Below are positions 38,362 through 41,650 of a stretch of 64,000 nucleotides of DNA, in pieces. This DNA comes from a bacterium (GTDB lineage: Bacteria > Electryoneota > JAOADG01). Position numbers and translations under genes: made by a program. The notes beneath the pieces are model-generated. The model ran no database searches, had not been told where the DNA came from, and saw only the letters and a list, made by a program, of their open reading frames with translations. The DNA lies in assembly GCA_963681965.1 (NCBI GenBank), contig OY820579.1, positions 2,048,001 through 2,112,000 on the forward strand. Reading direction: 5' to 3'. Position 1 is the first letter of the stretch; the number at the start of each line of letters is the position of its first letter.

Positions 38362-41355
38362 ATGACTTTCCGCCATCGCAGATTTCCACAATCAATGCTC
38401 GCCTTCGCGACGACTCTTATCTTCGTCTTCACAATCCTTCTTCCGCAAATTTCCTACGCCGTCTCGGTACAATCTTCGCGTCTTCCCCACCCTTTCCAGT
38501 TTACCGAGAACAAGGGGCAGTGGGATTCTGCCGTCCTCTATAAATGCGAGGTGCGACGCGATGGTTTCACCTGGTTCCTTGAGCGCGATGGTGTCACCCT
38601 CGTCACTTCCGCAATCGATTCCTCCTCTGTCATTGCGAAGGCGCCGAATGGCGCCTGTGGCAATCCACTCTTTTCAACTTTTCCCAACACCCAATCCCTC
38701 CCACCCAACTCTTATTCTATTGGTGGCGCAGGCCTCCGAGCCTGCGATCCTCTTGTGTCTGGTAAATTCCCCCTAAAATCTCACGCCCTCAAATTTAAAT
38801 TTGTCGTCTCCCGTAGGGGCGAATCGCAAAGTGCTCGCCGAAGGCAATCGCATTCGCCCCTATCTGTTCAAGATGCTCTCACTTGTCGTTGCGAGGAACG
38901 CAGCGAAGGATCGTCCGCCGTAGGCGGAAAGCCGCAGCGAAGTGACGAAGCAATCTACTCTTTTAAAGATTCAATGATACAGGAGGAGATTACCTTCGGT
39001 GAGCCCTTCGGGATTGCTTCGTCATTCCACTTCGGAAGTGCTTCGCACGTTCCTACGTTCATTCCTCGCAAAGACAAAATCAGGATTCAAGATACAAGAT
39101 TAGGGCGTATGCCATACGCCCCTACAGAAAAATATTCGACACAAGAGGATGTCGGAATAAATTCCGACCTACGAAAATACACTTGCGCGAAATGGATTGA
39201 TGCACAAGGTGAACGATCGTGGCATAACAATTATTTCCTCGGAAATGATTCCTCGAAATGGGCACCGGATTGCCGCAATTTTACACGCGTGGTGTATCAT
39301 GAGGTGTGGGAAGGCATCGACGTCGAGTGGTATGAGAGCAAAGGTCATCTCGAATTCGATTTCGTCGTCCATCCCGGTGCGGATCCCAAGCAAATTAAGA
39401 TGGTGTGTGAAGGGTTGGATGCGCCGATAGCAGGCGGAGGACGGACACTCTTGTCCGTCGACTCAGATATTTCTGTCACAAAAGGGAGTCGGACAGGAGT
39501 GTCCGACCTCCACTTATCGAATGAACTTTCGCTTCCCACCTCCCTCGGCGAACTCCGGATGTCAATTCCGGGGGCATACCAAACCACCTCCAACGGCACC
39601 CGCGGAAACGCTGTCACAGCACAATTCAGACTCGAGACAGGAAATGTCTTCGCCATCGATTTGCCGAATGGCTACGATGCATCACAAACGCTGAGAATCG
39701 ATCCTTTGGTGTATTCAACGTATTTGGGAGGAAGCGGAGGTGATCGTGCTGAGGCAATTGTAAGTGATCGAGTTGGGGGTACAGTTATGACTGGTCATAC
39801 ATCCAGCACCGATTTTCCCACGACTCCCGGAACGGGTGATCCCAGCGCTAATGGATATTCAGATTGTTTTATAGCAAAGATAGATTCAATAGGATCGAAT
39901 CTATTGTATGGTACTTATCTGGGGGGAAGTTACCACGATGAAGGGATGAGTGTCGATTACTACTTGGATGGCAGCATCTTAGTAACAGGTGAAACCCAAA
40001 GTCAAAACTTCCCAGTGACCGCCAACAGTCGTCCCTTCATGGGAAGTAGAAATGCATTTGTCACAAAAATTGGGACTAGTGGAAGCAATCTGGTATACAG
40101 TATTTTACTGGGTGGTGTAGGCATTTCTCTGGGTGATTGGGGTGAAACGATTTTGGACGATGGTTCAGGAGGTTGTTATGTTGCCGGTTTTACGGACAGC
40201 CCCAACTTTCCTACAACTTCGATCGACACCACCCTGGGCGGTGAAAGTGATGGTTTCATAACGCATATTGGGCAGACCGGACTTCTCTTTGCGAGTACCT
40301 ATTTAGGGGGGAGTGGGGGAGATTTTATTACTGATGTGCGAATTTCCTCCGATAGCAGTTTGTATGTATGCGGTTTCACGAATAGCAATGATTTCCCTAC
40401 AACACTTAATGCTTATTCTACAACACTGCATAGTACAGCCGATGAAGCTTTTATTGTTAAAATGAATATTACTTGTACTCAATTGATGCTAGGCACTTAC
40501 CTAGGTGGGGGAGCGCGAGATGGCGCTAGCTCACTTAAGGTAATGTCTGATGGAAGCATTGTTGTTGTGGGAACAACAGCCAGTCCTGATTTTCCAGTTC
40601 AAACTGTTTCTTTTGACACAATTTTCAATGCGCAAGTGAAAGGATATATAGCGATCCTGTCCAGTAACTTATCCACACTGCTTGCGAGCACATATTTAGG
40701 TGGAAATACCATTTCGAATTGCATGTCGTTGGACATCTCCCAAAACGGAAATTTAACCATCTCTGGAATAACCACCAGTATTAACTTTCCTACCACATCC
40801 AATGCTTTGCAGAGAGCGAGTGGAGGGTTGCGTGATGGTTTTTTCGCAGTCATGAATCGATCTTGTTCTCATCTGCTTTACAGCAGTTACTTGGGTGGTT
40901 CGAATGATGATGAATGCTATGCCCACTACTTAAAGGATTCAAATAACGTCGTACTAACTGGATGGACAGCTAGCTCGAATTTTCCACTTACTCCAGGGAG
41001 TTTCGACACCACATACACCGCATACACCTCCTTTCTCACCAATCTTCAATTTGAACCCGAAGTTTCGGTTATCAATGTGCCCCCTCTTCCTGTTAGCGAA
41101 AGACTGCTTTACGCTTACCCCAACCCCTTCAACTCCACCACCACACTTTCCTACATCCTCCCGATCACCTCTCACGTCGATCTCCGTCTCTACGATCTGA
41201 CCGGTCGCGAAGTCTCGACGCTGGTGCAACGCGAGCAGCACGCCGGAACGTATCGCCTACTGCTCGATGGTTCACGCTTAGCGAGTGGAACCTATTTCGT
41301 GCGGTTGCAAGCGGGAACATTTTCGAAGACACAGAAGATCGTGTTGTTAAAGTAG
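38362..41355 (+). CDS. Secreted SBBP/beta-propeller repeat protein with T9SS/FlgD-type C-terminal domain and in-frame repeat-derived insertions
   Basis: Signal peptide, FTENKGQW, NYFLGND..KW, EFDFVVHPGADP, IDPLVYSTYLGGSG followed by several STYLGG...G.T.S.DFPTT repeats, and YPNPFN...SGTYFVRL...KIVLLK. Confidence 0.88.
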   Translation: MTFRHRRFPQSMLAFATTLIFVFTILLPQISYAVSVQSSRLPHPFQFTENKGQWDSAVLYKCEVRRDGFTWFLERDGVTLVTSAIDSSSVIAKAPNGACGNPLFSTFPNTQSLPPNSYSIGGAGLRACDPLVSGKFPLKSHALKFKFVVSRRGESQSARRRQSHSPLSVQDALTCRCEERSEGSSAVGGKPQRSDEAIYSFKDSMIQEEITFGEPFGIASSFHFGSASHVPTFIPRKDKIRIQDTRLGRMPYAPTEKYSTQEDVGINSDLRKYTCAKWIDAQGERSWHNNYFLGNDSSKWAPDCRNFTRVVYHEVWEGIDVEWYESKGHLEFDFVVHPGADPKQIKMVCEGLDAPIAGGGRTLLSVDSDISVTKGSRTGVSDLHLSNELSLPTSLGELRMSIPGAYQTTSNGTRGNAVTAQFRLETGNVFAIDLPNGYDASQTLRIDPLVYSTYLGGSGGDRAEAIVSDRVGGTVMTGHTSSTDFPTTPGTGDPSANGYSDCFIAKIDSIGSNLLYGTYLGGSYHDEGMSVDYYLDGSILVTGETQSQNFPVTANSRPFMGSRNAFVTKIGTSGSNLVYSILLGGVGISLGDWGETILDDGSGGCYVAGFTDSPNFPTTSIDTTLGGESDGFITHIGQTGLLFASTYLGGSGGDFITDVRISSDSSLYVCGFTNSNDFPTTLNAYSTTLHSTADEAFIVKMNITCTQLMLGTYLGGGARDGASSLKVMSDGSIVVVGTTASPDFPVQTVSFDTIFNAQVKGYIAILSSNLSTLLASTYLGGNTISNCMSLDISQNGNLTISGITTSINFPTTSNALQRASGGLRDGFFAVMNRSCSHLLYSSYLGGSNDDECYAHYLKDSNNVVLTGWTASSNFPLTPGSFDTTYTAYTSFLTNLQFEPEVSVINVPPLPVSERLLYAYPNPFNSTTTLSYILPITSHVDLRLYDLTGREVSTLVQREQHAGTYRLLLDGSRLASGTYFVRLQAGTFSKTQKIVLLK
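38626..38748 (+). repeat. In-frame copy of repeat unit A within the CDS
   Basis: 123 nt (41 codons, SVIAKAPNGACGNPLFSTFPNTQSLPPNSYSIGGAGLRACD); about 90% identical to 37789-37914 outside the first hairpin. Confidence 0.85.
38813..39172. repeat. Nested REP/palindrome cluster inside the CDS
   Basis: GTAG-REP 38813-38862; large inverted repeat 38884-39076; inverted REPs 39102-39125 and 39151-39172, both ending in CTAC. Confidence 0.85.
39436..39511. repeat. GGAG-type REP doublet inside the CDS
   Basis: GGAG-GACGGACA-ctct-TGTCCGTC ... GTCGGACA-ggag-TGTCCGAC-CTCC. Confidence 0.8.
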
Positions 41356-41650
41356 GGGAGGGCTCGTGAGCCCTCCCGCCAGTAGGGGCGGGCTCCCACG
41401 CCCGCCCGTTCTTGTATCTTTTTCCTTTCCCAATTCCCAACACCTACCCCCTAACACCCTTATTTTCGGAGATGGCCCTTTAGGGCCGTCATTGCTGTTC
41501 TGTAGGGTTCATTCGCGAACGAACCGAGAGCGGTGCTACCTGCACCGCCGTAGGGCGTATGCGATTACCTTCGGTGAGCGCAGAGCGATACGCCCCTATG
41601 GAAAAAAGAGTAGGTTGCCACATCCGTTAGCCAACGGATTCGCACCGACA
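41352..41650. repeat. Downstream mosaic of REP-like units
   Basis: GTAG hairpins at 41352, 41382, 41502 and 41550; GGAG hairpin at 41468; degenerate unit-A spacer near 41430-41465; inverted GTCGTTGCGA-arm copy at 41602-41650. Confidence 0.8.

Follow-up and report, generated by a model that had tools for sequence, protein, structure and literature searches.

A 24-nt cassette at palindromic repeats of an Electryoneota genome and its patchy occurrence in a second phylum

The cassette and its host repeats

The DNA analyzed here (the window) is a 64,000-nt stretch, positions 2048001-2112000 of the single contig (OY820579.1) that makes up the complete 4,244,867-bp genome of an Electryoneota bacterium (assembly GCA_963681965.1, lineage JAOADG01; hereafter G000). 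It harbors three copies of a 24-nt sequence, termed the cassette, that are associated with palindromic repeats. Two copies lie within a 997-aa open reading frame (ORF; 38362..41355, plus strand) whose product has a signal peptide, an SBBP repeat, a type IX secretion system (T9SS) sorting tail and a DUF7948 domain that Pfam splits into three separate stretches. At about 38640-39170 this ORF reads a mosaic of repeats in frame. The remaining copy lies in an intergenic composite repeat (41503..41599, plus strand).

Each cassette consists of a 17-nt core and seven variable nucleotides (N7), and A-T and G-C variants are distinguished by one base pair within the core. Copy 1 (38988..39011, plus strand; GATTACCTTCGGTGAGC followed by the N7 CCTTCGG) belongs to a doublet of hairpin units. 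It lies between the 32-nt doublet spacer (38956..38987) and the right arm (39012..39076, plus strand; GATTGCTTCGTC...CGCAAAGACA), at the first base of the arm, and is translated in frame as ITFGEPFG. The left arm (38884..38955, minus strand) is an inverted, TGTC-tagged hairpin unit with its GATTGC head facing inward and without a cassette, and the spacer belongs to a family also found in a cassette-free doublet at genome positions 2252959/2253003. Copy 3 (38826..38849, minus strand), a G-C variant with N7 ACTTTGC, occupies the loop of REP-A (38813..38863, plus strand), a GTAG-type repetitive extragenic palindrome (REP; GTAGGGGCGAAT..ATTCGCCCCTAT) made up of 27 nt plus the cassette; it is read antisense and in frame as QSARRRQS. 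Copy 2 (41563..41586, plus strand), an A-T variant with N7 GCAGAGC, occupies the loop of REP-B in the composite repeat, where a TAGGGTTCATTCGCGAACGAACC palindrome and a second small palindrome accompany it, and its host is the sole filled REP-B in the genome. Further along the in-gene mosaic are an empty REP-B (39101..39125, plus strand; TAGGGCGTATGCCATACGCCCCTAC) and a GTCGGAATAAATTCCGACCTAC REP (39151..39172, plus strand), the latter of a type that flanks one of the two genes for REP-associated tyrosine transposases (RAYT) in G000.

An initial annotation, made by a model from the letters of the window, had described the three copies as a mini-insert interrupting the repeats. Their coordinates and strands proved correct, as did the flanking duplications of GATT, GCGAT and AATCGCA at copies 1, 2 and 3, and removal of the cassette yields in each case a repeat present elsewhere in the genome. 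At REP-B removal indeed restores a REP, but the one-base loop mismatch that had been recorded vanishes, the GCG-loop form being found at 13 places. Copies 2 and 3 do lie inside their host repeats, in REP loops, whereas copy 1 lies at a repeat edge. With up to two mismatches the core, GATTRCCTTCGGYGAGC, matched the window three times against an expectation of 0.04, and none of 100 shuffles reached three.

A fixed 24-nt unit, optional at every kind of site

Genome-wide, the core has 30 exact matches, rising to 44, 53 and 94 at one, two and three mismatches. From the nhmmer list for G000 we retained 51 copies (35 distinct), 25 on the plus and 26 on the minus strand, so the predicted abundance of copies at a fixed length in both orientations was borne out. 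Every one is 24 nt long and lies just 5' of GRTT; in the 35 distinct forms, columns 25-28 conform to G in 34, R in 34, T in 34 and T in 32. Counting the closing GRTT, the cassette measures 28 nt rather than 24, and its boundaries at GATT/GRTT are constant. No tandem cassettes occur among the 51, the closest same-strand pair being 217 nt apart, and there is no replication-strand bias, the cassette plus strand being the leading strand in 22 of 51. Six further one-mismatch core matches were dropped as chance matches within the transposase ORF of a six-copy, 1.2-kb insertion sequence (IS). The near-identical copies of this IS (1552847, 3591609, 3258..., 2206..., 2136... and 1281...) have GAAACCTCTGA.. 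inverted ends and a single DDE-type transposase ORF.

Chance similarity or an assembly artefact has in its favor the short length of the motif and nothing else. This reading is refuted by three copies in the window where 0.04 were expected, by the 30 exact cores in the genome, by a reversed-pattern control that returned 0 in every genome, and by independent contigs from four runs in two studies that match the 41563 site with 0 differences; we regard its probability as negligible.

Two mini-hairpins are predicted within the cassette. The first pairs T3-A15, T4.G14, R5-Y13, C6-G12 and C7-G11 around a TTC loop, and the second pairs C17-G25, N18-N24 and C19-G23. Among the 35 distinct G000 copies, pair 5-13 is AT in 20, GC in 12, GT in two and other in one, and pair 18-24 is CG in 10, AT in 11, GC in 11 and other in three. 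The compensatory change from ACC/GGT to GCC/GGC seen in the window is thus a genuine A-T/G-C exchange and general across genome copies. A cross-genome alignment was assembled from 25 copies (23 distinct) of G000, of G003 (from another genus in the family), of eleven named genome records and of eight metagenome contigs. In the 23 distinct copies pair 5-13 was AU in 15, GC in eight and unpaired in none, and pair 18-24 was CG in 10, AU in five, GC in two, UG in one and other in five, the copies having come from a pattern that fixes the other columns and leaves only columns 5, 13 and 18-24 free. The covariation score was 0.218, versus 0.090 +/- 0.017 for shuffles, none of 500 of which reached 0.218, and slid partners scored at most 0.035. 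DNA folding of the cassette alone gave energies no better than those of shuffles (z +1.1 to +1.3), with significant stems only in host REPs. The structure therefore rests on covariation, and the covarying pairs support two hairpins.

There are no terminal inverted repeats in the cassette, such as a MITE (miniature inverted-repeat transposable element) would have, and no fixed target duplication, the repeats that flank the three window copies being 4, 5 and 7 nt long. Derivation from a truncated or duplicated hairpin-unit head was rejected: the best identity to cassette-free heads was 16/28, and the shuffled mean maximum was 15-17. Rfam gave no match to the cassette or the hairpin units in window positions 38000-42500 at E <=10, nor in 12 loci of other genomes at gathering scores. 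A diverged cassette also forms a fixed inner part, followed by GGTTGCCATTAGCC..GGCTAATGC, of a ~170-nt element between inverted GTAGGGGCGGTTCGCGAACCGCCC REPs. This element is present at 1414373, 2284310, 3513768, 3856018, 4090491 and 4181033, and no empty form of it was found in G000.

The cassette is optional at every kind of site it occupies. In REPs, the spacing from GGGGCG to CGCCCC forms two classes, one of 9 nt (22 cases, of which REP-A supplies 11) and one of 33 nt (nine cases, every one with the cassette), a difference of exactly 24. G000 has 25 occurrences of the empty REP-A 19-mer and 49 of empty REP-B, 36 of the latter with a GCC or GGC loop in addition to the 13 with GCG; filled forms number 11 for REP-A and one for REP-B. 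Within REPs the cassette takes either orientation relative to the GTAG end. The initial annotation had proposed that the element targets palindromic repeats such as these. That view did not hold, the usual place being the 5' foot of a TGTC-tagged hairpin unit: 22 of the 51 cassettes precede GRTTGCTTCG units and nine precede GRTTGCCA units. The cassette is carried by 18 of the 72 GRTTGCTTCGTC heads listed, and 54 of the 72 GATTGCTTCGTC heads listed are without it, four of the 54 being chance matches in coding DNA. Cassette-free unit heads read GATT or GGTT.

Head-to-head neighbor pairs of hairpin units number 35 in G000, with doublet gaps of 32, 36 (twice), 47, 56 (in five doublets) and 60 nt. 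A gap of 56 nt equals the 32-nt spacer plus the cassette, and the doublet with the same spacer family and a 32-nt gap is its empty counterpart. The composite repeat, which comprises two small palindromes, a REP and a hairpin unit with homologous sequence on both flanks, has three copies in G000: one with a filled REP-B (window 41503, N7 GCAGAGC), one with a filled REP-A (genome 884204, N7 ACTTTGT) and one with an empty REP-B and a GCC loop (genome 555129). The 24-mers of the two filled copies differ at five of seven variable bases, and the adjoining 28-nt palindrome at one position. Overall, for 25 of the 51 filled copies an empty-like 26-nt junction exists in one or more other places in the genome (<=2 mismatches), paralogous rather than allelic.

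Empty sites had been named as the mark of mobility, and paralogous ones with homologous flanks were indeed found. An allelic empty site was not: contigs of four runs from two studies, which cover 41384-41780 and beyond, show 0 differences at 41563, and no joint skipping 24 nt occurs among the joints listed in these runs, which may derive from the source strain and whose contigs drop rare variants. Coding identity between G000 and G001, a genome of the same genus, is only 67-68%, which makes intergenic orthology with G001 unusable.

Filled and empty pairs could in principle reflect loss alone, with an ancestral cassette removed by precise GATT/GRTT slippage across hairpins and no insertion ever. 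Direct repeats flanking hairpins are classic deletion substrates, and the cassette is flanked by just such repeats; empty heads read GATT or GGTT, as expected if either repeat copy is kept, and the cassette-plus-unit layout is old and common to Bacteroidota. Loss without any gain is nevertheless improbable. Short-loop GTAG REPs are the rule (25 REP-A and 49 REP-B empty versus 11 and one filled), REP-loop hosts were seen only in G000, and deletion would not be expected to leave the GCC loop of the empty composite REP at 555129.

Within genes, the cassette is found in the family to which the 997-aa protein belongs. DUF7948 proteins have 28 members in G000 (further paralogs lie, for example, at 25619, 447379, 581395 and 3838239), whose N-terminal block is 57-100% identical, and at least 86% in all but three. 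From this block to the next conserved one runs a variable stretch of 177-666 nt, or in one case 1805 nt owing to an inserted transposase gene. It lies in one loop of the N-terminal domain and is assembled as a mosaic from GTAG REPs and hairpin units, with a REP even in its shortest forms and with the longest repeat-built version ~155 codons beyond the shortest. Its length is divisible by 3 in 24 of 27 paralogs and its frame is open in 23 of 27, figures for which a binomial significance is overstated, as paralogs are not independent. Right after ..KFKFV.., REP-A is empty in five paralogs and filled in seven, with flanks homologous over >100 nt. The family holds 15 of the 51 cassettes, 12 of them in intact ORFs of >900 aa, and both orientations occur within one mRNA. 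In-gene REP-A copies are the G-C variant without exception; in the antisense in-gene frame, window positions 38845-38847 read CAA, where the A-T variant would give TAA. That the cassette is frame-neutral is therefore correct and matters within this family, but its length is not shaped by coding, because the same 24 nt occur at non-coding sites in other phyla. At the paralog at 1545433 (region of about 1543700-1545400), a hairpin unit of the variable stretch is split by a ~1.3-kb insert with a transposase-like ORF.

N7 follows the host class. It is CCTTCGG-like in 20 of the 22 cassettes before GRTTGCTTCG units, GCTTCGC-like before GRTTGCCA units and ACTT[TC]G[TC] in 11 of 12 full REPs, which points to hitch-hiking. 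Given this pattern, the long flanks common to many cassette copies and the location of copies in paralogous genes, few independent entries would be needed, and we infer that most copies are passengers of their hosts. A tandem array at 2315973-2316430 contains a 217-nt unit three times, each with a cassette followed by the right half of REP-A alone.

Hairpin repeats, GIY-YIG genes and candidate enzymes

The cassette is native to TGTC-tagged hairpin repeats that are linked to small GIY-YIG nuclease genes. These repeats have the form GRTTGC...GCAAYGACA, reading TGTCRTTGC.. on the other strand, with lengths of 31-91 nt (modes 37, 40 and 65) and composite stems. The GIY-YIG genes encode about 95-105 aa. 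Both of those in G000 (1431312-1431533 and 3873475-3873690) have inverted hairpin units on either side, heads inward; hairpin units likewise flank such a gene in G001 and G003, and one Sphingobacterium locus, in a metagenome-assembled genome (MAG), also has its GIY-YIG gene between inverted units. Between head-to-head units in G000, no compact coding cargo occurs other than these two genes (gaps of 387 and 400 nt), and for this reason the gene-less doublets look like deletion derivatives of GIY-YIG-carrying pairs. One of the four GIY-YIG loci in the family, that at 3873 kb, has a cassette, directly past the stop codon. The gene there stands in a ~4-kb array region (3871700-3875320) with a duplicated zinc-ribbon ORF and six cassettes.

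A profile built from six small GIY-YIG proteins retrieved 80 loci, distributed over many phyla, of which 67 had complete flanks. Of these 67, 34 have GTCRTTSC upstream, 36 have GSAAYGAC downstream and 28 have both, against a chance expectation that we calculate at about 3 of 67. The reverse tag arrangement was also seen, in 22 and 23 of the 67, and thus GIY-YIG genes sit in clusters of units. The cassette core was found at 0 of these 67 loci of other phyla. From these flanks, the small GIY-YIG gene emerges as a candidate partner of the TGTC-tagged repeats; our literature search found no paper linking GIY-YIG genes with palindromic repeats or MITEs.

The cassette itself is patchily shared between two phyla. 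In the phylum of the window, a strict 28-nt pattern matched two of 79 genomes, G000 and G003. At one mismatch G003 gave 12 matches, 11 of them before hairpin units, and its locus L054 was set aside as a chance match; none was found at one mismatch in G001 (96% complete, 720 contigs) or G002. Across 185,579 species representatives the strict pattern yielded 20 further loci, of which 15 were read as real and five as chance matches in coding DNA. The 15 come from Bacteroidales MAGs, Sphingobacterium and Parapedobacter, and in each the cassette stands 5' of a hairpin, or what is left of one, that ends ..AATGACA; no recurrent neighbor gene or fixed position relative to genes was seen among these loci. 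Scanning metagenomes added 42 loci, mostly with the cassette-before-unit layout, and one sample contained about 20 copies within a longer inverted-repeat element. At three metagenome loci this element has ~30-nt terminal inverted repeats, GGGTGCATTTCAAATTGTCGC.., with cassette and unit on one side, and some GGGTGCATTTCAAATTGTCGC-ended elements contain an inverted cassette-like segment inside the opposite unit. Exact cores number 1-5 in other genomes versus 30 in G000. The 28-mer is nearly identical across lineages, whereas the adjoining hairpin units differ greatly.

Such conservation would suit a cis-acting motif, either a protein-binding site or a two-hairpin RNA, that is selected and repeatedly recruited, with mobility incidental. 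The 17-nt core and loop bases are invariant, pairing is kept by compensatory change in several genomes, and the sequence is conserved across two phyla above its flanks. A selected motif of this kind sits poorly, however, with both orientations within one mRNA, with optional presence at every site kind, with the lack of any Rfam match and with the inconsistent position relative to genes in other genomes, and it leaves the exact 24-nt indels unexplained. We give this explanation little credence.

A co-occurring enzyme family (RAYT, GIY-YIG or reverse transcriptase) had been suggested as the place to look for a mechanism, and no enzyme could be tied to the cassette. The two RAYT-like genes of G000 (526789-527022 and 529738-529974), 3 kb apart, score 94.3 and 78.9 bits against NF047646 (cut-off 80), and a distinct REP type borders each, GTATGTCGGAAT.. 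for one and GTAGGTCAGAAC.. for the other, in neither case with the cassette. G000 has 427 GTAGGGGCG and 151 GTAGGTC[AG]GAA REP heads. The complete genome gave no match to TnpB of IS200/IS605 and none to a reverse transcriptase, the latter arguing against a present-day retro-mechanism. GIY-YIG homologues were present in seven of seven cassette-bearing genomes checked; among genomes without the cassette, G001 has one (a gene with two stops) and G002 none. This co-occurrence says little, because the domain is near-universal, being found in 12 of 14 control genomes. Matches to Y1 transposases were obtained in G000 and G003, and also in G001, which lacks the cassette; G043, a MAG of completeness not established, has the cassette and no Y1 match.

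It is possible, although in our judgment not probable, that a 24-nt single strand is excised or copied by an enzyme acting in trans and integrated 3' of GATT, at the feet and loops of hairpins. Candidate enzymes would be the small GIY-YIG nuclease, through break-and-repair "homing", or a RAYT-type HUH tyrosine transposase, and the mini-hairpins with the GATT/GRTT ends would serve as recognition features. Boundaries that do not change between the three host classes or between phyla fit this proposal, as do the paralogous empty and filled pairs with homologous flanks, a core conserved far beyond its neighbors and the entry into REP-B with 5-6 nt of flank identity and without an identical donor. 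Further points are the cassette directly past a GIY-YIG stop codon, the GIY-YIG homologues in all seven cassette-bearing genomes checked and the two RAYT-like genes in G000. On the opposite strand the conserved T.G pair would become A.C, which hints at a strand-specific, single-strand form, a hint tempered by a search model that was built on that pair.

Set against these are the missing terminal inverted repeats and fixed target duplication, the even distribution over replication strands (22 of 51), an N7 that follows the host, and the uniformity of the four runs. Known HUH substrates have longer stems than the cassette's 3-5 bp. The enzymes themselves are loosely connected with it: the cassette is present at one of four GIY-YIG loci in the family and at 0 of 67 in other phyla, the GIY-YIG domain occurs almost everywhere, no Y1 match was obtained in one MAG with the cassette and G001 has Y1 without it, and the REPs around the RAYT genes are of other types. 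In its boldest form, in which the cassette would be the smallest transposable DNA outside cyanobacteria, a single strand moved by GIY-YIG or RAYT, inserted 3' of GATT and spread between phyla, the idea is rather unlikely. Were it true, the cassette would spread with GIY-YIG hairpin elements and could add 8 codons to surface-protein genes.

Proposed spread of the cassette and relation to known elements

The explanation we favor, tentatively, is that the cassette is a discrete, non-autonomous 24-nt sequence that spreads passively, enters new sites guided by microhomology and is lost by slippage. Its home would be a horizontally spread family of TGTC-tagged hairpin repeats, which act as inverted arms of GIY-YIG genes and also form gene-less head-to-head doublets, with the cassette as an optional leader at the GRTT foot. 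In G000 the hairpin family would have expanded, and the cassette would have entered GATT in the loops of GTAG REPs a few times. Later multiplication may have been passive, by amplification of REPs and composite repeats, by tandem arrays and by duplication or conversion of DUF7948 genes, where 8 codons and open frames would let the cassette persist. Gain and loss are both predicted to occur at the 4-nt direct repeat GATT/GRTT at stalled hairpins. For gain, a nascent strand would leave at GATT, copy 24 nt from a filled copy and rejoin at the same GATT; for loss, slippage between the two direct repeats would suffice. No element-encoded transposition would be required. Of the original proposal of a very small insertion element, the discrete 24-nt unit with constant boundaries thus stands, and its mobility in the strict sense is a hypothesis.

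Copy-in is favored by flank identities of 4-7 nt, by the match between N7 and host, and by the want of a fixed duplication, strand bias and tandems. The entries needed include at least one into the REP lineage and probably separate events for the two filled composite copies, since their 24-mers differ at five of seven variable bases and the adjoining palindrome at only one position.

Several observations weigh against this preferred reading. In the filled REP-B at 41563 the stems remain B-type as far as the cassette itself, and G000 has neither another filled REP-B that could have served as donor nor a second copy of the same 24 nt. With stems kept and no donor, entry into REP-B would have used at most 5-6 nt of homology, a situation that an enzyme would fit. 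The 28-mer is conserved far beyond the neighboring units, which would not be expected of a passive passenger and points to sequence-specific recognition by a protein. Switching of templates on 4 nt is a rare event, and no instance of it was observed in this analysis. Finally, both R5-Y13 states occur within several N7 classes, which needs repeated compensatory change or recombination.

The closest likeness is to elements of cyanobacteria. To our knowledge, very small mobile repeats have been reported only from Nostocaceae, with the mechanism open. Small dispersed repeats (SDR) of 21-27 nt, reportedly the subject of work by Elhai and colleagues in 2008 (Genome Res), are said to be inserted in homologous sequence and in other repeats by a mechanism that was left unknown. 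According to PMC5861425, one of them, SDR5, may insert at the palindrome HIP1, GCGATCGC, and SDR-like repeats had not been recorded beyond Nostocaceae. The cassette falls in the same length class as that recounted for SDR, has many dispersed copies (51 of 24 nt) and is present or absent in homologous sequence and inside other repeats, its sites being paralogous. The possible insertion of SDR5 at HIP1 also recalls the REP-loop sites of the cassette, which read GCGAT. The likeness is one of description, and the host belongs to another phylum; the strict pattern matched no cyanobacterium among its 20 genome and 42 metagenome loci. Unlike SDR, the cassette occurs in two phyla, forms two covarying hairpins, is associated with repeats that flank GIY-YIG genes and lies in frame in genes.

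Single-strand transposition in the IS200/IS605 family and its minimal, palindrome-associated derivatives involves hairpins near both ends and insertion beside a fixed tetranucleotide, with no regular target duplication. The cassette resembles these elements in its position beside GATT, in the similar GRTT at its end and in the want of a regular target duplication, and its two covarying hairpins, of only five and three pairs, may be comparable to theirs. It differs in its length of 24 nt and stems of 3-5 bp, in a left hairpin that overlaps the supposed target, in the absence of lagging-strand bias and of TnpB, and in that G000 has only RAYT-type Y1 genes.

The host repeats fall into better-known groups. 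REP-A and REP-B are ordinary GTAG-headed palindromes of the kind treated in the literature on REP/REPIN and RAYT transposases (PMC3116915, PMC2817692, PMC8266576), and loop length within GTAG REP families varies over 2-20 bp according to PMC3733652. The cassette itself has no GTAG, sits in the loop, is common to an unrelated repeat superfamily and does not lie beside RAYT genes; on nested insertions in REP loops, our literature search found nothing on point. Its other hosts recall the CGTC/TGTC-tagged repeats of Di Nocera et al. 2013 (PMC3733652), described as having a TGTC end followed by A/G-T and as mainly head-to-head dimers, with stems of 8-9 bp, loops of 4-5 nt and no associated transposase gene listed there. 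The hairpin units reported here likewise end ..GCAAYGACA and form head-to-head dimers; unlike those repeats, they measure 31-91 nt, have composite stems and flank small GIY-YIG genes. In-frame repeats within genes have precedents in Rickettsia palindromic elements (Delihas 2011, PMC3184786) and intragenic REPs (PMC3733652), and the DUF7948 family similarly carries in-frame repeats in conserved ORFs.

By analogy, the cassette behaves like an SDR, a rarely reported kind of element, here with cross-phylum conservation, a GIY-YIG link and a gene mosaic. As a second, structurally defined case of very small repeats, it would make the question of mechanism testable: its empty and filled sites are clean, the complete 4.2-Mb genome offers two candidate enzymes, and relatives occur in Bacteroidota. 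TGTC-tagged repeats are now linked to small GIY-YIG genes in many phyla, which offers a possible partner gene. In the organism itself, repeats including the cassette form an in-frame hypervariable loop in a 28-member secreted family and may be a source of surface variation.

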